A stretch of 64,000 nucleotides of DNA. Source: an uncultured Chloroflexia bacterium. Its GTDB lineage: Bacteria; Chloroflexota; Limnocylindria; Limnocylindrales; CSP1-4. This document shows positions 13,188-28,670 of the stretch, piece by piece. The translations under genes were made by a program, and so were the position numbers. How positions within the stretch are numbered: position 1 is the first letter of the stretch; each line of letters begins with the position of its first letter. Below the pieces are notes generated by a model. That model saw nothing but the letters and a program-made list of their open reading frames with translations, was not told where the DNA came from and searched no databases. The stretch is taken from assembly GCA_963721015.1 (NCBI GenBank), contig CAVRHM010000006.1, positions 141,399 to 205,398 on the forward strand. Reading direction: 5' to 3'.

Positions 13188-13240
13188 GGATCCCCTTGTC
13201 CGCCGGGTCGGAGCCGGTCGGCCGACATCCTACCCCGAGC

Positions 13241-14893
13241 GTGGTCCGACGCGGGCCGGCGCCGTTGACGGGGGACACCACGACCGAGGCCGACGCGCCT
13301 CGCCCGCTCCGGGTCGACATCGTCGTCGCCGGCCGCCACGGTCCGGCATGGGTCGCCGACGCCATCGCGGCCATCGATGCCGCCCCGCACGCCGTCCTCG
13401 GCGATCTCGTCGTCGAGCCCGGGCCCCCGTCGCCACTGCGCGGCGGCGCTCGGCGGCTCCTCGGCCTGTATGACCGCCTCGACCGGCGCCTGTTCGGACG
13501 GTCCGACGACCCGACACGGACGGTCGATCTCATCGCCGCGCACGCCCGGGCGGTGCGACCCCACCGTCCGCCGATCGGCGACGCGGATGTCCGCCTCCGG
13601 CTCGACGGCGTTCGCCCGACGGCGACGGCCGGCCCGATGCCGCGTCACGGCATCTGGACGATCGAGCACGGCCCGGGCCTCCCGCCCCGCGCGCGGTCGA
13701 ACGCCGCGGCGATGGCCCCGGGCGCGATGGAGCAGCTCCTGGGCTGGACGGCCATCGAGAGCCGCCTCGTCATCGACGCGGCTGACGGATCGCGCGTCGT
13801 CGACCGCGTCGTGAGTCGGGTCGACGCCCTGTCCGTCCAACGGGCAGCGCGCGGGCACCTCCCCAAGCTCGTCGGCCTGGTCGTCCGCGCCCTCGCAGCG
13901 GTGAGCACCACGAACCAGCTGCCCGCGCCGCGCGAGATGGAGCCGGTCGTCGGGCCAGGGGCGCGGTCCTCGACGACCGGCCTGGCCTTCGTCGCGCGCG
14001 GCCTCGTCAACGTCGTCGGCGGTTACCTCGCCCGTCTCGTCCGCCGTCGCCTGTCGCGTGAGCGCTGGATCGTCGCCATCGCCCGTGGTGCGGACGCGGA
14101 CCCGGACGCGCCGAGATCCGGCGTCCGACCCGGAGCGATGCGCACGTTGTCGGCGCCGGAAGGGCGAGAGTGGGCTGATCCGTTCCCGATCCGGACCGCG
14201 GATGGCGACCTCGTCTTCGTCGAGGAGTACGTCTGGGCGGACCGCCGTGGTCACCTGGCCGTCGTCACGCTCGACGACAGCCCTCGCGGCTGGCAGGACG
14301 TGCGCACGATCCTGGACCTGCCGACCCACCTGTCGTATCCGTTCGTGTTCGAGTGGGAGGGACGCTGGTACCTGTTGCCGGAGCAGGCCAGTGCGGGCGG
14401 CCTCCAGCTCTACGTCGCGGATCGATTCCCGGACACGTGGACCTGGCACGCCGAGGTCCTCGACCATCCAGCGGCCGACGCGACGCTGGCCCGGATCGGC
14501 GACCGCTGGTGGATGTTCACCGCGCACGCGATCCCGGGCGGGACGGCCGCCGACGAGCTCCACGTGTACCACGCCACTTCGCCGTTCGGGCCGTGGACCG
14601 CCCACGTCGCGAACCCGGTCGTCTCCGACGTCCGGACGGCTCGCCCGGCCGGCCACTGCTTCGAACGGGACGGCACGTGGTACCGGGTGGCTCAGGACGG
14701 CGCGGCCACGTACGGCCATGCCATCGTCATCCTCCGGATCGATCACCTGGACCTCACCGACTACCGCGAGACGGTCGTCGAGGTCATCCGTCCGGACTGG
14801 GCGCCCGGCCTGACGGGGACCCACACCCTCAATCGCGTGGACGGGCTCGTCGTCGTCGACGGTCTGCTCAACCCGCCGATCCTCCGCCGCTGA
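13241..14893 (+). CDS. GINT1-N-like (glucosamine inositolphosphorylceramide transferase N-terminal / GH43-like beta-propeller) protein, copy 1; start uncertain (13196-13265)
   Basis: WADPFP, FVEEY, HLSYPFVF, WYLLPE, GPWTAHVANPV, ARPAG, GTHTLN. Confidence 0.8.
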   Translation: MVRRGPAPLTGDTTTEADAPRPLRVDIVVAGRHGPAWVADAIAAIDAAPHAVLGDLVVEPGPPSPLRGGARRLLGLYDRLDRRLFGRSDDPTRTVDLIAAHARAVRPHRPPIGDADVRLRLDGVRPTATAGPMPRHGIWTIEHGPGLPPRARSNAAAMAPGAMEQLLGWTAIESRLVIDAADGSRVVDRVVSRVDALSVQRAARGHLPKLVGLVVRALAAVSTTNQLPAPREMEPVVGPGARSSTTGLAFVARGLVNVVGGYLARLVRRRLSRERWIVAIARGADADPDAPRSGVRPGAMRTLSAPEGREWADPFPIRTADGDLVFVEEYVWADRRGHLAVVTLDDSPRGWQDVRTILDLPTHLSYPFVFEWEGRWYLLPEQASAGGLQLYVADRFPDTWTWHAEVLDHPAADATLARIGDRWWMFTAHAIPGGTAADELHVYHATSPFGPWTAHVANPVVSDVRTARPAGHCFERDGTWYRVAQDGAATYGHAIVILRIDHLDLTDYRETVVEVIRPDWAPGLTGTHTLNRVDGLVVVDGLLNPPILRR

Positions 14894-15174: not shown

Positions 15175-17347
15175 ATGACATTCTGGGACGGGACCCGCTG
15201 GGTCGACGAAGACGCTGTCCACCGCAACGCCACCGCCGCCCAAGCCTCCCGCCCGAAGGGGCGACGCCACCTCAAGGACATCCTGGCCACCGGGGTCATG
15301 ATCGTCGGCCTGGTCGCCCTCGTCCTGCCGAGCGTGTCCACGTCGGCGGCCGGACTGCCGTCGGGCAACCGCCTGCTGACGCGCTGGGACGAGTCCGGTT
15401 CGGTCAAGCGCTTCAACGAGTCGAGCCCGCGGATCGCCTATCGCGGCGATTGGAAGCAGGCCGACCACGAGGGCCACATGGGCGGCCACGTCCTGGCGAC
15501 CGACGCCCGCAAGGCCAAGGCCTCGTTGAAGTTCACCGGTTCGGCCGTGTCCTGGATCGGGCCGGTCGGGCCGACGCGCGGCAAGGCCAAGATCTACATC
15601 GACCACCGGTACGTGGCGACGGTCGACACCTACGCCGCCAAGTTCAAGCCGGCCCGTGTGCTGTTCACCAAGGAATGGCGAGCGGTCAAGCCGCACCGCA
15701 TCACGATCGTCACGAGTGCGACGAAGGGGCGCGAGACCGTCGCCCTGGATGCGTTCGTCGTCCGCACGTCGAAGGGCGAGGCGGCACGCTCCAGGCCCAA
15801 GCCCGACAAGCCGGACACCACGCCCCGGCCGGACAAGACGCCGGTCCCGGAGACCGACCCGTACTTCAAGCTGACCGAGGATATCGGCCCGGCCGGCACC
15901 AGGACGACGCTCAAGCTGACCGGCTTCGCCGGTGAGTCCAGCGGCGACTTCTCGTTCGATGGCGAGGTCGGCGCCTTCCCCGGCTACGAGACGCGCGCTG
16001 ACGGCACCGCCGAGGTGGACGTCACGATCCCCGAGGGCGCCGGCCCAGGCAAGCACGAGATCCGGGCCCACGACAGCAAGGGCAAGTCCCTGATCATGCG
16101 CATCTTCGAGGTCACCGCGCCGGATCCGACGGCGGCCCCGACCGCGGCGCCGACGGCTGCGCCGACCAAGGCGCCGACCCCGGCCCCGACCGCGGCACCG
16201 ACCGCTGCCCCCACGGCTCGCCCCGACCGCGGCCCCCACCTCGGCGCCGACGGCGGCCGCCCCCACGGTGGCCCCGACCTCGGCACCGACCGTCGCCCCG
16301 ACCCCATCGCCGACCCCACGGCCGACCGCGACCCCGTCGCCGACGCCGTCACCGACCCCTCGGCCGACCGCCACGCCGTCGCCGACCCCGGTCCCGACGC
16401 CCGTCCCGACACCCACGCCGACGGTCGCACCGACCCCGGCGCCGACGGTCGCGCCGACGCCCACGCCCACGCCGGTCCCGACCTCCGCGCCGGCCGGTTA
16501 TGCGGCCGTCTTCAGCGGCGACGCGACCGGCGCGACCGACGTCACGGCCGCGCTCCGGAGCTTCCTCCAGTCGCACAACGGGCAGCGCGTCGCGCTCGCC
16601 ACGAACGGCATCTACCGGGTGACCCAGCTGACCTTCACGGCCAGCAACCTGACCGTCGACTTCCGCGGGGCTCGCCTCCAGGCAGCCCAGGTCGGCGTCC
16701 ACGGCATCCTCAAGATCCGTTCCGGCTCGAACGTCACGCTCAACGATCCCTGGATCATCGGCACCGGCTATGTCTGGGGCGACTCGACCCAGTGGGAGCA
16801 CGGCATCCATGTGGATGGCGGCTCGAACATCACCCTCAACCACCCCATCACCCGGAACACGCGCGGTGACGGGATCCTGACGGGCTATGACCCGGGCCTG
16901 ACGTCGACCCCGACCGGTGTCGTCATCAACAACCCCGACATCGAGCGCGCCGCGCGCAACGGCATCGCGCCGGTAGCCGGCCAGGTGACCATCCGCGGCG
17001 GCCGGATCGCCTACGCCGGCCTGCACGGCATCGACTTCGAACCGAACGATGCGACGGAGGCCGGCAGCATCCGGGCCATCGTCGACGGCGTCGATATCCG
17101 CAAGGCCGGCAACCTCCCGGCCGTCGGTTACCCCGGATACGCCATCTCGGCTGGCTGGGGCTACATGGCCACGAAGAAGCCGTCCCTCGTGTTCGAGAAC
17201 AACACCGGTGACATCCTGAGCATCGTGGTCATGGCCACGAACAGCGTCACCATCCGGAACAACACGTCGGACACGTCGACCTTCGCCGACATCACGACGA
17301 CGACGAGCGTGACCTTCAGCGGCAATACCCGCATCACCCGCCAGTAG
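15175..17347 (+). CDS. large exported multidomain protein: TM/signal, carbohydrate-binding-like domain, Ig-like domain, Pro/Thr linker, right-handed beta-helix; apparent frameshift in the linker (about 16215-16265)
   Basis: ORF 15175..16869 N-half (YRGDW...[24 protein letters not shown]) joins ORF 16268..17347 ([28 protein letters not shown]). Confidence 0.8.
16120..16490 (+). repeat. Pro/Thr/Ala coding repeats ([12 protein letters not shown] linker)
   Basis: tandem CCGAC-rich short units translating to a low-complexity linker. Confidence 0.85.
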
Positions 17348-17397: not shown

Positions 17398-19017
17398 ATG
17401 AGCGACCGTCGACCAAGAGCTCGGACCCGGGTCGCCCTGCGGATCGCCGCCGGCCCGGGTCCGGCGTTCCTGGCGGCCGCCGCCGACGCCGTACGGGGCT
17501 CGCCCCACGCGGACGTGGTGCTCATCCTCGTTGCGCCACCATCGGCTCGTCCCCTGACGGGTCGGGGCCGTGTCGTGGCCGCTGCCGAGGCGGCATTCGC
17601 GGCGCTCGAGCGAGCCGTCCTGCGCGGCGGGCCACCCGCCCTCGCCCCGGTAGGACCCGCGACGTGGCCGCCCGACATCCCGGTCGTGACCGCCCGGGAA
17701 GCGGATCGCCGCGCCGACGCGCTGCTCGCGGCGCGGGCGGACGTCGTCATCGACCTCGTCCCGGAGGATGACCGGGAGGCGCTACCCGTGCCTGCCGGTG
17801 GCTGGTGGCGACTCCGGTACCGGACGGGGAGTGACCCGCGCGACAGCGCGACCCTGCCGCGGCCCGCCGCGACGACCGATCTGGCCGTGTCCATGCTCAG
17901 CATCGGCCTGCCCGGTGACGTCGTCCACGAGACGGAGGTCGGCACGCATGCGCTCCACCGGATCGGGTTCGGCCGGGATCGCGACGCGGCCTATTGGCGA
18001 TCCGCACGCCTCCCGGCCCGGCGGCTCGCCCGGGCCGCGCCCGTGGCGGCAGCCAAGCCCGAGGCCGAGGCCGAGGCAAGGTCATCGCCGCCGCGCACCG
18101 TCGGACGCCGCCGGACGCCCGTGCCGCCGATCGTCGGGCTGGCCCGGGCGGTGCTGGCACGGGTCGTCGGGCGCGCGCTGTACCGGAGCGGCTGGGTCGT
18201 GTTGGTCCGCAGACGCCAGCCCGATGACGCGCCACCCGCGGACCTGTCCGGCTTCCAGGTCGTGCCCAGCCCCCGCGGGCGGTTCTACGCCGACCCGTTC
18301 GTGGTGGCCGCGCCGGATGGCCCACGGCTCCTGGTCGAGGATTGTCCGGATGGCCGCCACGAAGGGCGGATCAGCCAACTGCGCCACGACGCCGGACGCT
18401 GGCGCTTCGACCGCGTGCTGCTCGAGGACACCGCGCACCGAGCCTATCCCCATGCCATCGCCACCGCGGCCGGCCTCGTCGTGACCGCGGACAGCGGGCG
18501 CGCCGGCGGTGTGGACGTCTTCCTTCGGCCGGATCCGGCGTCCGGCCTGACACGGATCGGCCGAGCCCTCGAAGGACTGCCGGTGTCCGATCCGACCCTC
18601 CTCGTCCACGACGGGCGGTTCTGGCTCTTCGTCGCCCTGACCGAGCACGGCATGAGCCCATGGGACGAGCTGCATGTGTTCGTCTCCGCCACCTTGGAGG
18701 GCCCATGGCATACTCATCCGCGTAACCCGGTCGTCGCCGACGTGCGTCGTGCCCGACCGGCCGGCCGGATCTTCCGACGTGGGGACGCATGGATCCGGCC
18801 CGGCCAGGATTGCTCGGACGTCTATGGACGGCGGATCGTCCTCTCCGAGATCCTCGTGCTCACTCCGGACGACTACAGGGAACGACCCATCGCGACCATC
18901 GAACCGGCGGGCCTCGCCGACATGCAACGGACCCACACGTACACGTTCGACGGGACCACTGAAGCGCTCGATGCCTATCGGCGGGTCCCGCGATACCCAC
19001 GCCCGGGATCGCGATGA
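17398..19017 (+). CDS. GINT1-N-like beta-propeller protein, copy 2
   Basis: FYADPF, HRAYPH, SDPTL, ELHVF, GPWHTHPRNPV, ARPAG, QDCSDVYG, RTHT; paralog of 13241..14893. Confidence 0.8.
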   Translation: MSDRRPRARTRVALRIAAGPGPAFLAAAADAVRGSPHADVVLILVAPPSARPLTGRGRVVAAAEAAFAALERAVLRGGPPALAPVGPATWPPDIPVVTAREADRRADALLAARADVVIDLVPEDDREALPVPAGGWWRLRYRTGSDPRDSATLPRPAATTDLAVSMLSIGLPGDVVHETEVGTHALHRIGFGRDRDAAYWRSARLPARRLARAAPVAAAKPEAEAEARSSPPRTVGRRRTPVPPIVGLARAVLARVVGRALYRSGWVVLVRRRQPDDAPPADLSGFQVVPSPRGRFYADPFVVAAPDGPRLLVEDCPDGRHEGRISQLRHDAGRWRFDRVLLEDTAHRAYPHAIATAAGLVVTADSGRAGGVDVFLRPDPASGLTRIGRALEGLPVSDPTLLVHDGRFWLFVALTEHGMSPWDELHVFVSATLEGPWHTHPRNPVVADVRRARPAGRIFRRGDAWIRPGQDCSDVYGRRIVLSEILVLTPDDYRERPIATIEPAGLADMQRTHTYTFDGTTEALDAYRRVPRYPRPGSR

Positions 19018-20088
19018 GCGCCACCACGGAGGATCGCGAGCCCGTCAGGCGGGCGCTGGGACTCGGCGGGCGGGCCCTGATCGCGGTCACGGCCGTCCTG
19101 GGGTTCGCCTTGATCAGCCAGGTCCGCCTTGGACCGGGTCCGGACGAGCCCGGCACGACGACCCGGCCGGGCGGGGCCGCGGCCTCCGGCGACGTGACCG
19201 CAACGCCCGCCCCGACGCCGAAACCCGTCTACGCCGCGGTCTTCGATGGCGACGGCACGGGCGAGACGGATGTCACGGCGCAGCTCGAGCGATTCCTCGA
19301 ATCGCACGCCGGCGAGCACGTCGCGCTCGAGCCGGGCGCCACCTACCTGGTACGCGAGCTCGAGTTCACGGTCCGCGACCTGACCCTGGACTTCCGTGGT
19401 GCCCGGATCATCACCGACAAGCCGGGGTCGCTCGCCATCTTCCACCTGATCGACGGCGAGCGAGTCGTGCTCAATGACCCGACGGTCCACGGCACCGGAT
19501 TCACGTGGTCGGGCGGCGATGACAACCCGGAGCAGTGGGAAGCCGGGATCGAGATCAACGGGGGCTCGGAGGTGACGATCAACCGGCCGGTCACCCGGGA
19601 TACCCGGGGCGACGGGATCTACATCGGTTTCGAGGAGGGCACGAACCAGCCGGCCCGCGATGTCGTCATCGTGGAGCCGGACATCCAACGAGCCTCCCGG
19701 AACGGCATCTCGCCCGTCGCCGGCGAGGTCACCATCAGGGGCGGGTCGATCCAGGACGTCGGCCTGCACGGGATCGACTTCGAGCCGAACAATGACGTCG
19801 GTGCGCTGCAGCATCGTTGGCGTGGTGGACGGAGTCGATCTCCGCCGGGCCGGGGCGTTGGATGTCGCGGGCCTGACGGGCTATGCCATCGCGGCCGCCG
19901 GCTACTCGGTCGCGGACAAGCCGTCGCTGGTGCTCCAGAACGTGACCGGGGACCGTCTCGACATGCGCATCCACGACACGGCCGACCTGACGATCCGCGA
20001 CAACGTGTCTGACGAGGACGCCAGGGTCTACCTGGAGCGGGTCGAGTCCGTGGCCTTCGACGACAACGTCCGCGTCCGCCGGAATTAG
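19014..20088 (+). CDS. membrane-anchored right-handed beta-helix protein, apparent frameshift near 19805
   Basis: N-terminal TM; [42 protein letters not shown]; continues in ORF 19660..20088; paralog of the C-terminal domain of 15175..17347. Confidence 0.82.
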
Positions 20089-20117
20089 CGGCTGCCAGCG
20101 ACTAGCGGCTGCCAGCG
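20086..20117 (+). repeat. 15-bp direct repeat TAGCGGCTGCCAGCG x2
   Basis: copies at 20086-20100 and 20103-20117, beginning at the stop codon of the upstream gene. Confidence 0.8.
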
Positions 20118-20409
20118 CCGACTGCATCGTCGCTGGGGCGGTACCCTGTAGCGAGACCCAAGCGGCATTTCGACGCGAAGTCCACCGGACCGAACCGGAC
20201 CGCACCAAGTGTGGTGCGGGGAGGCAACGTCGAATCCGTTTGATAACCCAGCGGTACTGGTAACGCTAGTACGACGGGCCTATCGTAGGGTCTGGACGCA
20301 ACCCTTCGCCGCTCATCCTTTATCCGAGGCGGGGGCCGGGCGTCATTCTCAGTGGGGGCACCGATCGAATGTCAGCGCAGATGGAACGCGCTCGTGGCGC
20401 GGCACGCCC

Positions 20410-21264
20410 ATGAGCAGCTCGCTAGCACCCAAGACCAGGACGCGTCCGGAGCGGCGCGCCCGCGGCAACCTGAGCCTGACCACCACGGACCGGCTGTATG
20501 ACTCGCGTTTGACGGCGCCGGCCCAGCCGTCGACGTTGGCCGATGCGTTCGGCCCGACCGTCGAATGGCGGCCCGTCGATGTGCCCGTCCCGAATGTCGG
20601 GCAGGAGATCATCCCGCGCCGACGCAACGAGATCGCGACTCGAGCCATCAACATTGTCTTGGCCGGCGTCGGCATGGTCGTCATCGCGCCGGTGTTCGCC
20701 GTCCTGGCCGCGGCCATCAAGCTCGATTCGCGTGGGCCGGTGCTGTACTCGCAGTCGCGGGTCGGCATCGATCGGCGCTGGCGCCGCATGTCGAGTACCC
20801 ACGAGGCACGGCGCGAGGATGCCGGTGGCCGGGTGTTCACGATCTACAAGCTGCGGACGATGCATGTCGACGCGGAGTCCACGCCAGACCAGGTGTGGGC
20901 GACGGAGGGCGACCCCCGAGTCACCCGGGTGGGGCGCGTCTTGCGCCGCTTCCGGATCGACGAGATCCCCCAGCTCTGGAACATCCTGCGCGGCGACATG
21001 AACATCGTCGGTCCCCGCCCGGAGCAGCCGACGATCGCGATGCGCCTCCGCGACGACATCCCGGAGTACCGACTGCGCCATCGGGTCAAGCCCGGCCTGA
21101 CCGGACTTGCCCAGATCAACCAGTCGTATGACACCACGCTCGACTCGGTCCGCTCGAAGGTCGCCTGGGACCTCCGCTACATCCGGGAGCAGAGCCTGCT
21201 CCTGGACCTGCGGGTCATGCTTCTGACGATCCCGGCGGTCCTGCTCAAGTTCCGGGGCTGGTAG
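20410..21264 (+). CDS. priming sugar transferase (polyprenyl-phosphate glycosylphosphotransferase, PF02397 type)
   Basis: IKLDSRGPVLYSQ, FTIYKLRTM, DPRVTRVG, DEIPQLWNILRGDMNIVGPRPE, VKPGLTGLAQ. Confidence 0.93.
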   Translation: MSSSLAPKTRTRPERRARGNLSLTTTDRLYDSRLTAPAQPSTLADAFGPTVEWRPVDVPVPNVGQEIIPRRRNEIATRAINIVLAGVGMVVIAPVFAVLAAAIKLDSRGPVLYSQSRVGIDRRWRRMSSTHEARREDAGGRVFTIYKLRTMHVDAESTPDQVWATEGDPRVTRVGRVLRRFRIDEIPQLWNILRGDMNIVGPRPEQPTIAMRLRDDIPEYRLRHRVKPGLTGLAQINQSYDTTLDSVRSKVAWDLRYIREQSLLLDLRVMLLTIPAVLLKFRGW

Positions 21265-21281
21265 TCCCGGAACGAGCCTGC

Positions 21282-22109
21282 TCAGGCGGACGGTCCCTGC
21301 TCGACGACGGTGACCACGCGCGTCCCGTCCTCGGTCGACAGGTCGACGACGGTCCAGGTGTCGTTGTTCGTCTCGTCCACCTCGACGAAGTGATCTGACG
21401 GGTCCGCGATGGCCCGAAGCCGGTAGCGGCCATCCGGGACGTCCGTGATGAGGATCGTCTGGTCGAGCAGATACCAGGGATAGTTGTCGCCCCAGCCGAT
21501 GGATAGACCCATCGCGATGTCCCGGTCGGTCGGCGTGCCGCATTCCGCGGCCCCATACGTCGCCGCCGCTGGTGCACCGTCGAGCGTCGTCCGGTAGTCG
21601 ACGTTGTCGAAGAAGCAGAAGCCCGTCTTGACCAGGCTGCCGACGACCTCACCGTCCATCGTCTCGAGCTGGTGGGCCTCAGCGCCGCGGACGTGCCAGT
21701 GATCGTGTAAATCGCCGCCGAAGATGAGCGACGCGTCGGTCTGACGCTCGCTATACCCGCCCGGGGCTTCGTCCTCGATCCGCTGGCTCACCTGCCAGCC
21801 GTCGCCGAACGGCATCCGCCGGTGGGCGGCGACGAGCATGTCACCGTCCCCGACGTTGACGATGGACGCGGAGAAGCGCAGATAGACCGTTCCGTCAGCC
21901 TCGGTGCCGATGAGGATGTCGGACAGCGGGGCCATCCCGAGGTCCGGATACCGAGGCTCAACGGGCGCATCGAGCGGCGGCGGCGTCGGCCCGCCGGTCT
22001 GGTAGAGGACGATGCCGATCGCCCCGGCTGCGACGAGCAGGACGAGCAGCAGGAGGCTGACCGCTCGAAGGACGATCGAGGGAGAGGCCGGCGGCGTGGG
22101 TTCGGTCAT
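21282..22109 (-). CDS. membrane-anchored lysyl oxidase family protein
   Basis: N-terminal TM; PDL, HDHWH (Cu site), KTGFC (LTQ Lys), GLSIGWGDNY (LTQ Tyr), DQTILITDVPDGRY and EVDETNN align with the LOX catalytic domain. Confidence 0.85.
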   Translation of the reverse strand: MTEPTPPASPSIVLRAVSLLLLVLLVAAGAIGIVLYQTGGPTPPPLDAPVEPRYPDLGMAPLSDILIGTEADGTVYLRFSASIVNVGDGDMLVAAHRRMPFGDGWQVSQRIEDEAPGGYSERQTDASLIFGGDLHDHWHVRGAEAHQLETMDGEVVGSLVKTGFCFFDNVDYRTTLDGAPAAATYGAAECGTPTDRDIAMGLSIGWGDNYPWYLLDQTILITDVPDGRYRLRAIADPSDHFVEVDETNNDTWTVVDLSTEDGTRVVTVVEQGPSA

Positions 22110-22117
22110 GGCGGGCA

Positions 22118-22150
22118 ACGATAACGCCCCCGGCCGAAGCCGGGGGCGTC
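22118..22150 (-). terminator. intrinsic terminator-like hairpin
   Basis: ACGCCCCCGGC-TTCG-GCCGGGGGCGT followed by TATCGTT on the minus strand, downstream of 22179..22616. Confidence 0.7.
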
Positions 22151-22178
22151 AGGCGATCCGGTACGAGACCGGGTGAGC

Positions 22179-22616
22179 TCAGCCCTTCTTGTCGAAGCAG
22201 AAGGTGATGTGGCTCACGCCATAGGGCTTGTCGCTGTTGTCGTTCCAAGCCGCCTGCAGGTTCGTGTCGCTATCGTCCGTGTCCTGGCCGTAGATGTACA
22301 CGACGGAGCTGGTCGGGCCGCCCTTCACGATGACCGCGGCGATGTCGTACTTGCTCGAGCCGCTGTCCGTGAACTTCCAGTCGAACGAGTCGCCGTCCAG
22401 GTTCTTGATCTTGATCGGCCCATAGACGCCGTTGGCCGGGTCGTCGATCTTGAACGACTTGAAGGTGTCGCTGTCGCACGTCGCGTCCTTCCACGGCGTG
22501 ACGACGATGACACTGTCGGCATTCGGGGCGACGGACGCCGCGCTGGCCGTGAAGAAGGCGCCGCTCGCGAACATCGCGAGGGCCGAGATTCCGATGAGGA
22601 CCTTGATCTTGCGCAT
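22179..22616 (-). CDS. small secreted Lys/Asp-rich protein of unknown function
   Basis: GGAGG RBS; signal peptide MRKIKVLIG...TASA; AVIVKGG...Y.Y and VSHITFC motifs; two Cys. Confidence 0.8.
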   Translation of the reverse strand: MRKIKVLIGISALAMFASGAFFTASAASVAPNADSVIVVTPWKDATCDSDTFKSFKIDDPANGVYGPIKIKNLDGDSFDWKFTDSGSSKYDIAAVIVKGGPTSSVVYIYGQDTDDSDTNLQAAWNDNSDKPYGVSHITFCFDKKG

Positions 22617-22818
22617 GCTGCCTCCGCAATCCCCGGATGGGTGGTCGGGTACTGGCGTGCCCGAGCGGCGGGACTCCCCCCGCGTCCCTTGCAGCATCCC
22701 TAACAGTCCTGCCCGTGTCCAGTACTTTCGGTGTCAACGTGCCGTCACGCGCCGTGGTTCCGGTGCGCACGGGCAACGTTTGCAGCCGGCTTCACGGGGA
22801 TTCGGGCCGCGGGGTCAG

Positions 22819-23784
22819 CTACGGCGTATAGGTGACGCTCACCGCGAGGTAGTCGAGGCGGAACTGCTTGGTGCCCTGCGACGAGGCGTCGATGAGGCGG
22901 ACCCGGAAGTTCGCCGCCGACAGCTGGCCCGGCGTCCAGGTCCGGCCCCAGGTATCCGTCGCCGACCCGAACGTGTAGGTCGTCAGGGTCATCGTGTTGA
23001 TGGCCTGCGCTTGCATCGCGGTCCAGGTCGCCCCACCGTCCCACGACAGCTGGACGCACACATTGGAGTTGCCGCCGTTGTTGTTCATGCCCAGATCCGC
23101 CCGGACGGAGATACCGTCGATCGAGGTCACCGACCCGGGCACGCCCGTCGCGAAGCCCCAGAACCGGTGGCGGTCCTTGCGGACATCCGGCGTCGTCCCG
23201 GTGCCGCATGACTGGTTGCCGCCGGTGCCGCTGTTGTCGTCCATCGCGCTGAGCGCGTCGTCGACGCACGCCCGGCTCGGGTTCGACTCGTAGCCGTTGT
23301 CGTCGCCCGCGTCGGGCGTGTCCGCGGCGTTGCTCGCGGCGACGCACGTGGCGTAGGCGGTCGACGTGTTCGTCGAGACGGTCGCGCTCGCCTCGTTGCT
23401 GACGGCACTCGTCCACGACTCGAAGACCGATCGCAGGACATACGACCACGTCCCGTTGCCCGGGCTGTCCGTCGTCGTGGTCGCGGTCCGCGGTGTGACC
23501 GATCCGATGGCGCTGTACGGACCGCCACTGGTCGGCCCCCGGAGCACCGTATAGCCCGTTGCGTAGCCGTCGACGGTCGGCGTCCAGGTCAGGGTGACCG
23601 CGCTGCCGCCGGTCGCGGCCAACCCGGTCGGCGCGGCGAGGGTGTCGGACGCCCACGTCCCGGACACGTCGGCAGCGTCGGTCAGGCGGGCCAGCGACGT
23701 CGTGGCCGGGGCCAGCATGGCGATGGTCAGGATCGCCGCCGCGGCGAGGCTGGCCGCCCAGCGCCCCCGGTTCCGGCCCATCAC
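22819..23784 (-). CDS. secreted protein with a SipW-type signal peptide, FN3-like domain and Cys-containing C-terminal domain
   Basis: TTSLA-RLTD cleavage motif resembling the neighbouring TasA-like SLA-IFTD; LAAPTGL..VTLTW..GY.V.R..GGPY; GTGA overlap with sipW. Confidence 0.78.
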   Translation of the reverse strand: MMGRNRGRWAASLAAAAILTIAMLAPATTSLARLTDAADVSGTWASDTLAAPTGLAATGGSAVTLTWTPTVDGYATGYTVLRGPTSGGPYSAIGSVTPRTATTTTDSPGNGTWSYVLRSVFESWTSAVSNEASATVSTNTSTAYATCVAASNAADTPDAGDDNGYESNPSRACVDDALSAMDDNSGTGGNQSCGTGTTPDVRKDRHRFWGFATGVPGSVTSIDGISVRADLGMNNNGGNSNVCVQLSWDGGATWTAMQAQAINTMTLTTYTFGSATDTWGRTWTPGQLSAANFRVRLIDASSQGTKQFRLDYLAVSVTYTP

Positions 23785-24548
23785 GCGCCCTGGCCGGTCG
23801 GGCGTGGTCGCGTGCTGCGTGACGCGCGGCGCCGGACCTCCCCGGTCCGCAGCGGGTGCTGGGCGCGACGCCGGGGCGAGGCGCCCTGGTCCAGGCGAAC
23901 GGACGCCCTGGCCGGCGCCACCGGATGGACGGCCACCGCCTCGGCGGCCGGGACGGATCCCAGGACGGCCTGCGCGTGGCCACCGATCGCCGGACTCGGA
24001 CCACGAGCGGTCCGGCGCCGGGCAGCGGCCACGTCGTCGAGCCACCAGCCGAAGACGATGAGGAGGGCGCCGGTCGACAGCACGAGGATCACGCCCGGTG
24101 GCGCCGACATGAGGGCCAGCAGATAGCCGGCGTTCGGGACCATGACCGCGACCCGCCCGATGACGGCCGAGGCCGGCGTGATCGACGGATCCTTCTCGGC
24201 ATTGGCATCGCCCTTCGTCTCGATCCAGCGCTCGCCATCCTTGTCGACCAGGCGGGTGATCCGATGGGTGAACACGGCGCGCTGGCCGCCGCTCTGGAGG
24301 CTGACCACATCACCGACTCCGAGGTCGGCCTCGGAGACCGTGTCGAGGACGACCGCGGCGCCGATGGGGATGGCCGGCGACATCGAGGGACCGGCCACGA
24401 CGAAGACGGGGTGGCCGGTGGCCGGCAGGACGCGACCGAGGATGACCGAGCTCAGGCCGACAGCGACGATGGCCAGGAGCACGAGATCGACCACGCGCCC
24501 GAGCACGATCAGGGATCGTGCGGCGGTGGTCGGTCGATCGGCGGTCAT
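23781..24548 (-). CDS. sipW: signal peptidase I, SipW/ER type
   Basis: GPSMSP (Ser), THRI (His dyad), TKGDAN..D; N- and C-terminal TM segments. Confidence 0.9.
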   Translation of the reverse strand: MTADRPTTAARSLIVLGRVVDLVLLAIVAVGLSSVILGRVLPATGHPVFVVAGPSMSPAIPIGAAVVLDTVSEADLGVGDVVSLQSGGQRAVFTHRITRLVDKDGERWIETKGDANAEKDPSITPASAVIGRVAVMVPNAGYLLALMSAPPGVILVLSTGALLIVFGWWLDDVAAARRRTARGPSPAIGGHAQAVLGSVPAAEAVAVHPVAPARASVRLDQGASPRRRAQHPLRTGEVRRRASRSTRPRPTGQGA

Positions 24549-24579
24549 GGCTGGGACGCTCCTGTGCCCGGAACGGTGA

Positions 24580-24614
24580 CCGGACCGCGACCCGCCAGGC
24601 GGGTCGCGGTCCGG
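24580..24614. other. perfect 17-bp inverted repeat between the TasA-like gene and sipW
   Basis: CCGGACCGCGACCCGCC-A-GGCGGGTCGCGGTCCGG; no U-tract. Confidence 0.8.
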
Positions 24615-24633
24615 GGTGCAGCCGTGATGCGGA

Positions 24634-25233
24634 TTACGGGTTGTTGTCGACCTGCTCGGCGTCGAACGTGAAGGTCGCGCTCGACGACTCGCCCTGGGCG
24701 CTGTTGCCCGTGGCCAGCGGCAGCGTGACGCGGAAGCACAGGACTTCGTCGTCACCGGCCAGCAGCGTGCGGTCGTCGGTGTCGTCACCCTGGGCCGGGC
24801 TGCCGATCGCGGCGCCATCGAGGGCCGTGGCCGCCAGGACGGTCGAGCCGTCGAAGGTGGCGCAGTCGGTCCCCTGGGTCTTGACCGTCAGGGTCAGCGT
24901 GTCGCCCAACGCGTTGGTCGCGACGGTCGACAGCGCGTAGCGCAGGTCGGCGGTGCCGTCATTGGAGATGGTCAGGGCGGCCGTGTCAGTGTCGCCCGGG
25001 ACCATGTCCGTGACGGTGAACGCGACCGTGGGGTTCGAGTTGATGTCGACGGTCCCGGACGTGAAGGTCCCGGTCGAGGCATCGCTGTCCGTGAAGATGG
25101 CGAGCGAGAACATGCCGGCGCCCAGGCTGATCGTCGTCAGGCCAAGCAGCAGGGCGAGGATGCCCCGGCGCCGGCGGCGCGACGGGCGCTCCTCGGCGGT
25201 GATCGGCAGGACGGTACTCGGTGCGTGATCCAT
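24634..25233 (-). CDS. TasA/camelysin (M73)-family SipW-dependent secreted protein
   Basis: RRRRR + hydrophobic + GMFSLA-IFTD..STGTFTSGTVDI; MVPGD, ISNDGT..LRY, GNSAQG..FTFDAEQ; adjacent to sipW. Confidence 0.88.
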   Translation of the reverse strand: MDHAPSTVLPITAEERPSRRRRRGILALLLGLTTISLGAGMFSLAIFTDSDASTGTFTSGTVDINSNPTVAFTVTDMVPGDTDTAALTISNDGTADLRYALSTVATNALGDTLTLTVKTQGTDCATFDGSTVLAATALDGAAIGSPAQGDDTDDRTLLAGDDEVLCFRVTLPLATGNSAQGESSSATFTFDAEQVDNNP

Positions 25234-25477
25234 GGTGGTGCGCAAGCCTCGTTCGGCGGCGGCTGCCGCGGTCGTTCCCGGTGGTCTCCGGATCCATTGC
25301 CCCCGACGCTCCTGGACCCCGGTGTGGGTGTCGCGAACCGGCTGGATGCGTCGACCCCATGCAATCAGACCGATGACGTACGTCGCCACGGGACGAGTGG
25401 GTCACGGACACCGGTACCTTGGTCCGGCGCGTCACACGGTTCGGTGCCGCGAGGCGCCGCATTCGCGGTGTCGGATT

Positions 25478-25499
25478 CGGGCGTCGTGAGCGACGCCCG
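25478..25499 (-). terminator. hairpin just after the enoyl-CoA hydratase stop
   Basis: 9-bp stem CGGGCGTCG/CGACGCCCG with 4-nt loop; no clear U-tract. Confidence 0.45.
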
Positions 25500-25510
25500 G
25501 AGACCCGCGG

Positions 25511-26368
25511 TCAGCCTGGCTCGTCCGCCCCCGGATCCGTGATCTCGCCTGACCGGCCGCTGTCCGCCAGCCGCTCGTCGTAGCGCTCGTCGCGCCAGGC
25601 CAGCGCCGCCTTCAGGCCATCGCGCCGGACGATCGCGTCGAAGGCGCGCTGGGTCGCGCTCATGTTGATGATCGACTGCAGGTCGAGGCCGGCCTCGATG
25701 GCGGTCAGGAACCCGGCGGCCTCCATCGCCCGATTGAGCATCGCCTTGGTCGGGGCCATGACGTCGCCGGGCACCCGGGCCAGCCGGTCGGCCAGGGCGT
25801 CGACCTCGGCCTCGAGCGCGTCGGCCGGGACGACCCGATTGACCAGCCCGATCCGCTCCGCCCGCTCGGCGTCGATGAGATCGCCGGTCATGAGCAGCTC
25901 GCGCGTGACCTTCTGGCCGATGAGGTAGGGCATGAGGAAGGTCACCGGCGCCGATCCGAACCGGATCTCCGGCTCACCGAGCTGGGACCCTTCGGCCGCC
26001 ACGATGAGATCGCAGGCCATGGCCAGCTCCAGGCCACCGGCCAGGGCGTAGCCGTGGACCTGGGCGATGACCGGCTTGGGACAACGCCAGACGGCGAGCG
26101 TCGCCGCGACGTCCTCGGCCAGGAGCGATCGCCACGTCCACGTGTCGTCGGGCTGGGCCTCGGACAGGTCGTAGCCCGAGCAGAACGCGCGCCCGGCGCC
26201 GGCGATGACGATGACCCGGACCCCGTCGTCCTCGGTGGCCGCCGCGATCGCGGCGACCAGCGCCTCGCGGAGCTCGTGGTTGATGGCGTTGAGCTTGGCT
26301 GGCCGATCGAGGGTCAGGCGGACGCCCCACGGCATCGGCGTCGTTCGAAGGACCGGCTCGTCAGCCAT
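25511..26368 (-). CDS. enoyl-CoA hydratase/isomerase family protein
   Basis: LDRPAKLNA, AFCSGYDL, GYALAGGLELAMACD, PEIRFG. Confidence 0.93.
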   Translation of the reverse strand: MADEPVLRTTPMPWGVRLTLDRPAKLNAINHELREALVAAIAAATEDDGVRVIVIAGAGRAFCSGYDLSEAQPDDTWTWRSLLAEDVAATLAVWRCPKPVIAQVHGYALAGGLELAMACDLIVAAEGSQLGEPEIRFGSAPVTFLMPYLIGQKVTRELLMTGDLIDAERAERIGLVNRVVPADALEAEVDALADRLARVPGDVMAPTKAMLNRAMEAAGFLTAIEAGLDLQSIINMSATQRAFDAIVRRDGLKAALAWRDERYDERLADSGRSGEITDPGADEPG

Positions 26369-28670
26369 GCGCGGATGGCGCCGCCTCGCCATGGGCGCGG
26401 TCCAGGACGACCAGGGCGTCGACCGCGACGACCCCGTCCGGGGCCGCGATGACCGGATTGATGTCGATCTCCCGGATGTCCGGCCGGGCCACGGCCAGGC
26501 GCGACAGGGCGACGATCATGTCGGCCAGGCCACCCCGGTCGGCAGCGGGACGCCCACGGAGGCCGTCGAGGATCCGCGTGCCGCGCAGCTCACCGAGCAT
26601 CGTCAGCGCTTCGGCACGACTGACCGGCGCCAGGCGGATCGCGACATCGTCCAGGAGCTCGGTCAGGATGCCGCCGAGGCCGACGATGACGGCCGGACCG
26701 AACGAGGGGTCGCGCTGGACGCCGAGGATGACCTCCACGCCCGGGTCGGCCATCGGCTCGACGAGGAGGCCGTGGCTGTCGAGTCCGTGCCGACGGCCGG
26801 CCTCGAGCAGCGCCTCGCCGGCGGACCGGATGGCCTCATCGCCGACGAGGCCGAGGCGAACGAGGCCCAGGTCCGATTTATGGGCCAGGTCCACTGCGTC
26901 CAGCTTGAGCGCGACGGCATGGCCGGCCAACGGCCGGGCCGCCTCCACGGCAGCATCGGCATCGGGGACCGCGATGGCGGCGGTCACCGCGAGGCCGGCG
27001 GCGCGCAGCAGCTCGAGGCTGTCGCGCTCGGACAGCGTCACCTGCCCGGCGGTCGGCTCGGGACTCGAAGGCGCCCCGGCGGCTGCCGACGCCAGCGCCG
27101 CGGACTCGGGTGAGCGCACGTACGGGGTTCGGTCCGCCGCCAGGTCCGGCCAGGAGGTCCGCCACGGGCCGTCGTCCCGGCGACGCTCCCGCCGGCCCGT
27201 CCACCGGGCGACGGCGGCGATGGCGGTGAAGGCCTCGACCGCGCCGCGCAGCAGCGGCGCCCCGTGGCCGTCGCCGTCCAGCAGGGCCTTGGTCGCGGGC
27301 GGCGGCTCGCCGGACGTCAGGGACACGTAGACCGGCAGGAGGTCGGGGCGTGTCGCCGTCACGGCCAGGAGCTCGGCCGTGACCTCGTTGGCGGTCGCGA
27401 CCTCGGCCGGCATCGACTGGTACGGGAAGTCGTGGACGAGGCACAGCACGTCGTACGCGCCGGACGCCGCCATCGCCTCGAAGCTCGCCCGGTACGCCTC
27501 GGCCGGGTCAGCGGCTCCCCACGGGTCGAGCGGGTTGCCGATGTAGCCCATCGTCGGCAGGCGTTCCAGGATCGACGCCCGGGCCGCCGGCGGGATCGGC
27601 GGCAGGTCGATCCCGGTCCGGGGCGCGAGGTCGGCGACGAGCGACGCCTCGCCCGTGCTGACGGTCACGACCCCGGTCCGCCCGCGGCCCACCCCGCGGC
27701 CGGTGCGCCGGATGCCCTCGACCAGCTCGGCCGTCTCGAGCAGCTCATCGAGGTCGGCGCAGCGGATGACGCCGGCCGCATCCAGGGCCGCGTCCGTGAT
27801 CCGAGCCTCGCCGGCCAGGGATCCGGAGTGCGCGACGGCGGCGGCCTGGGCCTGGGCACTCCGGCCGACCTTGACCGCCATGATCGGCTTGCCCAGCGCG
27901 AGCGCCCGGTCGGCCAGGGCCAGGAACCGCTCGGGCCGCTTGAAGCCCTCGACGAACAGGATGACCGACGTCGTCTCGGGGTCGTCCAGGCAGTACGCGA
28001 GGTAGTCGCAGACGTCGAGGGCCACCTCGGTGCCGCAGCTGATGATCCGGCTGAAGCCGATCCGCGAGCCCGAGTGGATGAACGCGTCCGTCACGGACCC
28101 GGACTGGGCGATGCCGGCCACGCCGCCCCGCGGCAGGTATGGCGACACGTCGCCGATGTAGGCGGAGCTGTTGGCCGTGAAGTCGACGACGCCCATGCAG
28201 TTGGGGCCGACGAGGGCCAGATCGTGGGCGCGGGCGATGTCGGCCACCTCGGCCTGCATCGCGGCCGCTGCCTCGCCCCCCTCGACGACGCCGCCGCCCG
28301 GGATGATGACCGCCGGCACACCGGCGGCGGCCGCATCACGGGTGACCATCGCGGCCCGCAACGGATTCAGGGCCACGAGCGCGATGTCCGGCCGCTCCGG
28401 GAGCGACCGCAGGTCCGGGTAGCAGATCTGGCCAAGAAGCTGGTCGTACTTGGGATTCACGAAGTGGCAGCGCGTCTCGCTGCCCATCGCCCGCAGGTTG
28501 TCGCGCACGGTCTCGGCGATCCAGCCGCGGGCGGACGCGCCGACGATGGCGATGGACCGCGGCGCGAAGAGCGGTCGAAGGTCGATCGTCGGCGTGGCGG
28601 CCGGCGCCGGGGCGGACGCCGTGGTCACGCCGGCGGCCGGCAAGGTCGGCGAGCTCGGGCGGGCGGCCAT
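26361..28670 (-). CDS. acetate/acyl-CoA ligase (ADP-forming) family, CoA-binding plus ATP-grasp domains
   Basis: PRSIAIVGAS, GPNCMG, AQSG, AHSGSLAG (phospho-His), NPLD, HKSDLG, DINP. Confidence 0.9.
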   Translation of the reverse strand: MAARPSSPTLPAAGVTTASAPAPAATPTIDLRPLFAPRSIAIVGASARGWIAETVRDNLRAMGSETRCHFVNPKYDQLLGQICYPDLRSLPERPDIALVALNPLRAAMVTRDAAAAGVPAVIIPGGGVVEGGEAAAAMQAEVADIARAHDLALVGPNCMGVVDFTANSSAYIGDVSPYLPRGGVAGIAQSGSVTDAFIHSGSRIGFSRIISCGTEVALDVCDYLAYCLDDPETTSVILFVEGFKRPERFLALADRALALGKPIMAVKVGRSAQAQAAAVAHSGSLAGEARITDAALDAAGVIRCADLDELLETAELVEGIRRTGRGVGRGRTGVVTVSTGEASLVADLAPRTGIDLPPIPPAARASILERLPTMGYIGNPLDPWGAADPAEAYRASFEAMAASGAYDVLCLVHDFPYQSMPAEVATANEVTAELLAVTATRPDLLPVYVSLTSGEPPPATKALLDGDGHGAPLLRGAVEAFTAIAAVARWTGRRERRRDDGPWRTSWPDLAADRTPYVRSPESAALASAAAGAPSSPEPTAGQVTLSERDSLELLRAAGLAVTAAIAVPDADAAVEAARPLAGHAVALKLDAVDLAHKSDLGLVRLGLVGDEAIRSAGEALLEAGRRHGLDSHGLLVEPMADPGVEVILGVQRDPSFGPAVIVGLGGILTELLDDVAIRLAPVSRAEALTMLGELRGTRILDGLRGRPAADRGGLADMIVALSRLAVARPDIREIDINPVIAAPDGVVAVDALVVLDRAHGEAAPSAHG

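Follow-up and report, generated by a model that had tools for sequence, protein, structure and literature searches.

Introduction

On what does a bacterial lysyl oxidase (LOX) act when its gene is kept beside the gene of one small secreted protein? This question was raised by a 64,000-nucleotide stretch of DNA from an uncultured Chloroflexia bacterium (contig CAVRHM010000006.1, positions 141,399 to 205,398; the whole stretch is called the window), in which five open reading frames (ORFs), all co-oriented on the minus strand, encode a TasA-like protein, a signal peptidase, a second SipW-type substrate, a small secreted protein (the VKGG protein, or partner) and LOX. The initial annotation of the window had described five co-oriented genes, which was borne out by the ORFs at 21282-25233, and had read them as a candidate cross-linked extracellular matrix. 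The present analysis pointed to a smaller unit, in which a known enzyme family is accompanied by a dedicated, genetically linked partner from an unnamed family. That the VKGG protein is the substrate of LOX, with a tail lysine oxidized to allysine and then coupled to an amine, was given a probability of about 50%, based on sequence comparison, a modelled complex and the analogy with animal LOX.

Prokaryotic LOX genes have been catalogued since 2015, and in the available sections of that survey the cross-linking of bacterial collagen-like proteins was judged unlikely and the function was left open (PMC4448552). HTU-LOX of Haloterrigena turkmenica was described, in the accessible text of its report, as a Cu-dependent amine oxidase that is sensitive to beta-aminopropionitrile (BAPN) and acts on Lys-containing polypeptides, with a cryptic native role (PMC6452851). 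As far as their accessible text goes, neither source identifies a native substrate or a partner gene linked to LOX (PMC4448552, PMC6452851), whereas a conserved lysine-tailed partner is present here. Searches of the open-access literature, supplements aside, turned up no paper on a substrate or a linked partner of a bacterial LOX.

Results

Pairing of the LOX and VKGG genes

The genus was represented by 131 genomes (G000 is the query genome, with a completeness of 77%). Close homologues bore the labels Candidatus Limnocylindrales or Chloroflexota, which is probably where this genome belongs. For the wider LOX-driven survey, the genome collection yielded 298 LOX loci, of which the best 80 were used, with flanks of at most 6 kb, some of them much shorter. 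After removal of identical sequences, 34 of 38 stand-alone partner copies abutted a LOX gene, with 27 lying before it, 6 after it and 1 in convergent orientation; three of the other four had less than 200 bp of downstream DNA, and the fourth was a frameshifted long form. Part of this 38-copy set had been selected through LOX; in the partner-driven loci alone, LOX abutted 13 of 17 stand-alone copies. Among the metagenome loci found via the partner, LOX was directly beside it in 23 of 63 (13 tandem, and 10 divergent beside a long form), and the LOX-driven loci contained the partner in 17/80, from Chloroflexota and Actinomycetota. Haloechinothrix halophila, H. salitolerans and Actinophytocola were cultured carriers of the pair. 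The link between the VKGG and LOX genes is strong, and the synteny comparison of LOX with the KGG...SHI.FC protein, which had been proposed with the initial annotation, turned out strongly positive. Counted by genome, any LOX was found in 22 of 28 genomes with the partner vs 41 of 103 without it, a comparison that is confounded by kinship and incomplete genomes and was left unused.

At three metagenome loci (L121, L124 and L134), one partner gene was followed by two tandem, divergent LOX genes.

The 69-nt spacer between the partner and LOX genes contained a hairpin with a folding energy of -36.2 kcal/mol (z -3.2; none of 200 shuffles reached this stability). Of 28 partner-LOX spacers, all but one, from a frameshifted locus, had a long stem, and the shuffle test covered the query spacer only. 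A TANNNT hexamer was located 6-8 nt ahead of an in-frame LOX start in 6 of the 28 spacers, and no full sigma-70 promoter was detected by scan in positions 20000-26000 of the window. A terminator and a -10 box before LOX had been entered as a caveat against joint expression of LOX with the upstream gene; the hairpin and the hexamer are indeed present, but the hairpin is a conserved part of the pair. With this hairpin, the partner would be plentiful and the enzyme scarce. In four metatranscriptome assemblies from two studies (word share 0.05-0.08), parts of both genes were matched by short contigs of nearly identical sequence, which is not evidence of transcription or of its level.

Family and predicted fold of the VKGG protein

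The VKGG protein had no match in Pfam or NCBIfam, and its family contained 1906 representatives at an E-value of 0.001. The conserved residues were Cys47, Lys56, Trp80, Val-Lys98-Gly-Gly, Tyr107, Tyr109, Ser135-His136 and Cys140. A beta-sandwich was predicted in the structure model (pLDDT 87.8), for which Foldseek returned 0 matches at E 0.001. When the model was compared with 48161 chains by VIA-align, the best Z was 5.0 (root-mean-square deviation 2.8, 76 aligned), with weak resemblance to carbohydrate-binding and FN3-type sandwiches; the best match among PDB sequence profiles was weak (E 0.04), and the nearest clusters in the ESM Atlas were unnamed (best 0.89). This lack of a clear fold or family match is not equivalent to a new fold.

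Longer members of the family carry Pro-Thr stalks, DUF11, SpaA or SdrD_B domains, and wall anchors. The partner domain heads many sortase-anchored or Ig-stalk surface proteins (DUF11, SpaA, SdrD_B, LPXTG), from which the protein studied here differs in that the stand-alone lysine-tailed form is nearly confined to LOX neighbourhoods and in that its domain is without a Pfam or NCBIfam model. One such paralogue is encoded in the query genome, 826 kb away on the same contig (G000:C6 near 989315; L004, L006), and consists of the same domain, an Asp-Gln-Lys after the domain, a Pro-Thr-Glu stalk and an LPPTD-hydrophobic-basic ending of the sorting type. By a rough pattern, LPPTD-like endings occurred in 7 ORFs of this genome, and a sortase was present. 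Among the anchored long forms of 27 genus genomes, a lysine at +4 was found in 9/12 with a close LOX vs 2/15 without, counts in which kin are not independent.

Two further settings of the domain were seen in metagenome loci. At L140 and L142 it was followed by an ending that we take to be PEP-CTERM-like, with no LOX in the short flanks. At L168, L169 and L172 it formed part of large, acidic substrates of the SipW type, whose genes cluster with that of a SipW-type peptidase and with several TasA-like genes; these loci, which look haloarchaeal, were without LOX and without the lysine tail.

Lysine tail of the LOX-linked partners

The lysine counts of the initial annotation were right, namely 11 Lys in the 119 residues of the small protein after position 26 (9.2%) and 1 Lys in the TasA-like protein. 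Compared to the background of the genome, in which 6 of 1828 ORFs with high GC at third codon positions reach 9% Lys and the median is 1.2%, this content is high. Across 177 VKGG family domains, however, the median was 2.9%, and 18 of the 19 closest homologues contained 2.2-6.5% (10% in the remaining one). Overall lysine richness was therefore rejected as a marker of a substrate, being peculiar to this copy. The proposal that the small secreted protein is a LOX substrate was retained in part: its synteny with LOX makes it a good candidate, whereas the argument from lysine richness fails.

In sequence terms, the conserved feature of the LOX-linked partners is a lysine directly after the domain, not lysine richness. 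Tails were counted over 8 residues in the 103 sequences examined, from which non-adjacent copies with short flanks were dropped. Asp-x-Lys followed the last strand in 35/44 LOX-adjacent copies vs 5/37 non-adjacent copies, and any Lys was present in the tail of 43/44 vs 9/37; the background for a lysine-tail ending was 7 of 1828 ORFs of the genome. The typical endings were FDPKA (the commonest), FDKKG (the query gene) and DKKNPDPKK, and the long anchored forms divergent from LOX kept Asp-Pro-Lys in the linker (9/9 rows). As a negative control, a sample of 301 genomes of the class of a Solirubrobacteraceae genome, which is not the class of the query, was searched, and 14 new loci were obtained; the 3 short members were all without a Lys tail and without LOX within 1.5 kb, and the 11 long ones were without LOX. 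The class sample around the query genome contained 29 loci, of which 2 were short, lysine-tailed and LOX-adjacent (their tails had been seen before), and the 27 others were without LOX.

According to the accessible text of PMC5932954, the N-telopeptide site of collagen alpha1(I) is Asp-Glu-Lys-Ser, and the best LOX substrate among the telopeptide-derived peptides tested contained Asp-Pro-Lys (PMC5932954, citing Nagan and Kagan 1994). The candidate substrate likewise presents Asp-x-Lys on a short terminal extension, with the spacing of Asp-Glu-Lys-Ser. Unlike collagen and elastin, it is a 119-residue beta-sandwich with no triple helix or elastin, and its gene is next to the LOX gene.

Modelled complex and the role of the partner

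The complex structure prediction suggested with the initial annotation was performed for LOX 50-275 and partner 30-145, both with alignments, with copper and cofactor absent from the model. The score was 0.64 (runs of 0.64, 0.60 and 0.72) compared with 0.00 for the best of 3 controls. This mark is reached by 116 of 157 solved complexes and by 2 of 215 mismatched pairs, and it is roughly valid here as own alignments were used. The runs shared at least 83% of contacts, with a partner pLDDT of at least 81. The most confident contacts paired LOX strand 66-71 with partner strand 35-39, and the interface also held LOX 209, 211 and 213-215, which flank Tyr210, together with partner 140 and 142-143. 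As no like complex appeared in the structure searches, recall of a solved pair is unlikely. The complex model supports binding between LOX and the partner and does not separate a substrate from a subunit. Two interface columns differed between linked and unlinked LOX (W212, 95% vs 64%; L214, 95% vs 49%), and these modest differences track the tree of the enzymes, so that no co-evolution is claimed.

A number of observations weighed against the partner being a substrate. The domain is also common away from LOX (53 of 62 long forms), so its conserved Lys56 and Lys98 serve something else. In a quick tree of 127 LOX domains, built with no bootstrap, 35 of the 41 linked enzymes were grouped in a single well-supported clade, in which all four orientations occur, and the remaining 6 fell in a separate, poorly resolved actinobacterial group; the pairing counts are thus related, not independent, and Fisher values calculated from them are too strong. 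No partner was detected for 86 of these 127 distinct LOX domains, some of which had short flanks. The five genus LOX loci most like the query (69-56% identity; G100, G108, G096, G004 and G068) were also without an adjacent partner, and all five genomes encode a long form elsewhere with the same lysine. Asp-x-Lys was missing from the 8-residue tail in 9 of the 44 LOX-linked partners. The contacts of highest confidence in the model pair two strands at a distance from the active site, and neither Tyr210 nor Lys144 is among the confident ones, in a model free of copper and cofactor.

In the main rival to the substrate reading, the VKGG protein is a binder but not a working substrate, that is, an accessory subunit, a folding or targeting aid, or a propeptide-like inhibitor with its lysine tail plugging the active site, and LOX acts on other amines. 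The regularity of the strand pairing, as in a stable complex, would agree with this, as would the use of the partner domain as a general module of surface proteins. According to the accessible text of its report, HTU-LOX runs at 210 kDa in cells, for which there is no explanation, and its N-terminal segment is inhibitory (PMC6452851). A bound subunit would less readily account for close enzymes that manage without an adjacent partner, for the Asp-Pro-Lys that long anchored forms beside LOX keep in their linkers, or for the conserved hairpin, which suggests unequal amounts and not 1:1. Fusion of partner and LOX was also absent, since PF01186 was found in 0 of 100 longer family members scanned and was listed in 0 of 21 longer matches, which is weak evidence given the capped size of these searches. 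An accessory or inhibitory role was considered rather unlikely.

LOX as an enzyme and its possible other targets

The LOX protein scored 26.1 bits against PF01186 (cut-off 20.4), and a profile built from 56 LOX relatives matched human LOXL2 (5ZE3) at E 4.4e-13. The HDHWH cluster, the Lys of KTGFC and the Tyr of GDNY, which had been pointed out in the initial annotation, all aligned with their LOXL2 counterparts. Judged from these alignments, LOX is an intact family member with all catalytic residues. Like animal LOX and LOXL1-4, it has three Cu histidines and the Lys/Tyr pair of the lysine tyrosylquinone (LTQ) cofactor and is exported; different from them, it is without SRCR domains and a long propeptide and has a putative N-terminal membrane anchor. 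The likeness to other prokaryotic LOX, as given in the available sections on the survey set (PMC4448552) and HTU-LOX, extends to a signal or transmembrane segment plus the LOX domain only, three essential His with the first animal His absent, and a patchy distribution.

The query genome encodes a second LOX of 440 aa with a C-terminal SLH domain (G000:C2:835486-836808, minus strand; L005:6486-7808). It is directly upstream of a glucose/sorbosone dehydrogenase gene of the pyrroloquinoline quinone (PQQ) type, and the VKGG partner is not beside it. Longer LOX forms of this kind are the commonest LOX in the genus and cluster together in the quick tree.

The enzyme could also be a promiscuous surface amine oxidase that scavenges nitrogen, puts out peroxide or oxidizes amines of glycans, with the small gene as a passenger in a mobile two-gene cassette. 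HTU-LOX, the one prokaryotic LOX to have been characterized, is promiscuous, and BAPN was without effect on its host, in the accessible text of its report (PMC6452851), which also weighs against the substrate reading. Its relaxed specificity and low expression fit a promiscuous oxidase. So do the patchy distribution in the genus (any LOX in 63/131 genomes), the second LOX beside a sugar dehydrogenase in place of the partner, and the fact that the LOX site abuts a polysaccharide locus in several relatives. A passenger gene would, however, hardly be kept with LOX in four relative orientations and two phyla, its lysine tail would not be expected to track LOX adjacency, and the complex model passed its controls. 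Oxidation of amines on deacetylated exopolysaccharide (EPS), which had been suggested in the initial annotation, gained no support from the neighbourhood, as neither of the two PF01522 deacetylase genes in the genome falls within the window, the search for deacetylases being confined to this family. Taken with these points, the promiscuous-oxidase explanation is quite improbable.

TasA/SipW module and its relation to LOX

A TasA-like match was found in 42 of 131 genus genomes (two of them weak), and loci from 27 of these 42 were examined, in all of which (27/27) the SipW-type peptidase adjoined the TasA-like gene. B. subtilis TasA was the best sequence match of the TasA-like protein (8AUR, E 6.7e-6), and the top three Foldseek rows of its model (pLDDT 73; residues 30-53 below 50) were TasA, the best being 5OF1 (E 9.6e-5, TM 0.42). 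Both proteins were below the cut-offs of the Bacillus equivalogs, with 19.4 vs 450 for TasA (NF046066) and 57.5 vs 190 for SipW (NF046067). The second substrate had been annotated with FN3, which agrees with a weak match to the Fn3-like PDB entry 3mpc (E 0.001) but not with Pfam, where no fn3 match was obtained at E 0.1.

The Bacillus tapA-sipW-tasA operon produces donor-strand fibres, according to the accessible text of PMC9674648. The genes described here resemble it in a TasA-like protein with a conserved N-terminal strand region, a SipW-type peptidase and another substrate that shares the signal type (PMC9674648, same text), and differ from it in that the second substrate is FN3-like with no TapA match, the host belongs to Chloroflexota and the scores fall below the equivalog cut-offs. 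In the TasA-like family of the genus, a C-terminal AEQxxNNP is near-invariant and two cysteines are invariant.

The tie between LOX and the TasA/SipW cluster, drawn in the initial annotation, did not survive the synteny comparison. Of the 42 genus genomes with a TasA-like match, only G000, G010, G098 and G100 (4 of 42) had LOX no more than 5 kb from that gene, with an unrelated FAD oxidase gene between the TasA module and LOX in G010 and G100. Within the flanks of the 80 wider LOX loci, tasA or sipW was found in none and the FN3-like gene in one. The tasA-sipW genes directly followed an enoyl-CoA hydratase gene in 20/27 loci. At 3 loci lacking tasA (two in G093, one in G095), this hydratase gene was followed by the partner and LOX, and in G108, G068 and G147 LOX was near the enoyl-CoA hydratase block, again without tasA. 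A shared variable chromosomal site thus explains the adjacency of LOX and tasA. Counted by genome, any LOX accompanied the TasA-like match in 25/42 vs 38/89 without it, which is confounded by kinship and incomplete genomes and was left unused.

Mature TasA-like proteins contained 0-3 Lys, none conserved, with 0 Lys in 8/23 rows, including that of the LOX-linked G100. The TasA-like protein was therefore rejected as a LOX substrate.

One five-gene system, in which LOX cross-links a TasA-based matrix with the small protein and the TasA/SipW genes, would explain why all five genes are co-oriented and why the same contiguous order recurs in G098 and at the metagenome locus L127. It could also draw on the partner domain inside SipW-type substrates, seen at three unrelated loci without LOX (L168, L169 and L172). 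Set against the rarity of LOX near tasA, the shared site after enoyl-CoA hydratase and the scarcity of lysine in TasA-like proteins, this explanation is highly improbable, and it is largely refuted by synteny. The tasA-sipW-FN3 genes look like a separate TasA-type fibre module at the chromosomal site of the LOX pair.

Organization of the locus

The features are collected in Table 1. The initial annotation placed the genes next to an EPS locus. This locus is real, with glycosyltransferases, MurJ and a priming transferase, but its last gene is on the opposite strand and convergent with LOX.

Table 1. Positions of the features in the window, with the basis of each assignment.
Feature	Position	Strand	Basis
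Lysyl oxidase, 275 aa: N-terminal hydrophobic anchor, Pro-rich linker, catalytic domain	21282..22109	-	PF01186; LOXL2 profile match
Copper-binding His135-x-His137-x-His139	21693..21707	-	Aligned to LOXL2 His cluster; 114/114 aligned relatives
Lys161 (KTGFC), candidate LTQ lysine	21627..21629	-	Aligned to LOXL2 Lys; Lys in 113/114 relatives, one gap
Tyr210 (GDNY), candidate LTQ tyrosine	21480..21482	-	Aligned to LOXL2 Tyr; 114/114 relatives
Hydrophobic stretch at LOX residues of about 13-36; either a membrane anchor or a signal	22002..22073	-	By reading the sequence
VKGG protein, 145 aa: signal peptide, disulfide-bridged beta-sandwich, short lysine tail; LOX partner, candidate substrate	22179..22616	-	Model, synteny, complex model
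C-terminal tail Asp142-Lys143-Lys144-Gly145; Asp two residues before Lys144	22182..22193	-	LOX-linked motif; 142-143 in modelled interface
GC-rich hairpin of 13 bp in the partner-LOX spacer (terminator, or stem that stabilises the transcript)	22122..22151	-	Folding vs shuffles; conservation
TATCGT (TANNNT) hexamer 8 nt before LOX ATG, possible leaderless -10 element	22118..22123	-	Function inferred
Second SipW-type substrate, 320 aa, FN3-like N-terminal domain; part of tasA-sipW module	22819..23781	-	Comes after tasA-sipW in 20/27 loci
SipW-type (archaeal-type) signal peptidase I	23781..24548	-	TIGR02228, 77 bits vs cut-off 51.85
TasA-like protein, 199 aa; separate module	24634..25233	-	PF12389, 49.4 bits vs cut-off 22.5
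Enoyl-CoA hydratase, edge of conserved block beside which both modules occur	25511..26392	-	PF00378; neighbour map in relatives
Priming sugar transferase, at the end of the polysaccharide locus and convergent with LOX	20209..21264	+	PF02397, 199 bits

The polysaccharide locus also contained two GINT1_N-type glycosidase-like genes and two genes for beta-helix-like secreted proteins with Pro-Thr linkers (13196-14893, 16268-17347, 17398-19017 and 19014-20012). The ORF at 19014-20012 stops ahead of a continuing frame at 19660-20088, which may be due to a frameshift. Frameshifts were also observed in LOX, TasA-like or FN3-like genes at the genus loci L035, L099, L101, L104, L107, L108 and L116; the contigs concerned are long, and errors of sequencing, not pseudogenes, may be the cause.

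Discussion

The working unit of this locus would consist of two genes, one for a copper/LTQ lysyl oxidase tethered to the membrane and the other for the small beta-sandwich protein that is secreted. In the model, the partner is predicted to dock by adding a beta-strand to the first strand of the enzyme. LOX would then oxidize the tail lysine of the partner to allysine, as animal LOX does on the collagen telopeptide, and the allysine would couple to an amine on another copy of the partner, on a wall-anchored paralogue or on a surface glycan. This coupling would fix the partner covalently at the cell surface.

On a wider scale, soil Chloroflexota and Actinomycetota may run their own LOX cross-linking, in which a tethered LOX recognizes its dedicated secreted protein by an Asp-x-Lys tail like that of the telopeptide and joins soluble and sortase-anchored copies through allysine into a covalent surface layer; this broader picture is possible and is put forward tentatively. 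If it is true, aldehyde-based matrix cross-linking with a collagen-like sequence preference exists in bacteria, and it may predate animal matrices.

The locus provides a concrete test case, with one enzyme, one 13 kDa partner, one tail lysine and cultured carriers, and the VKGG protein gives a first point of entry to a surface domain that has about 1900 representative sequences but no name. If the tail is oxidized, a small genetically encoded aldehyde tag with its matching enzyme would be available for protein engineering, and allysine chemistry would be placed on a bacterial surface protein, which would bear on the origin of matrix cross-linking in animals.

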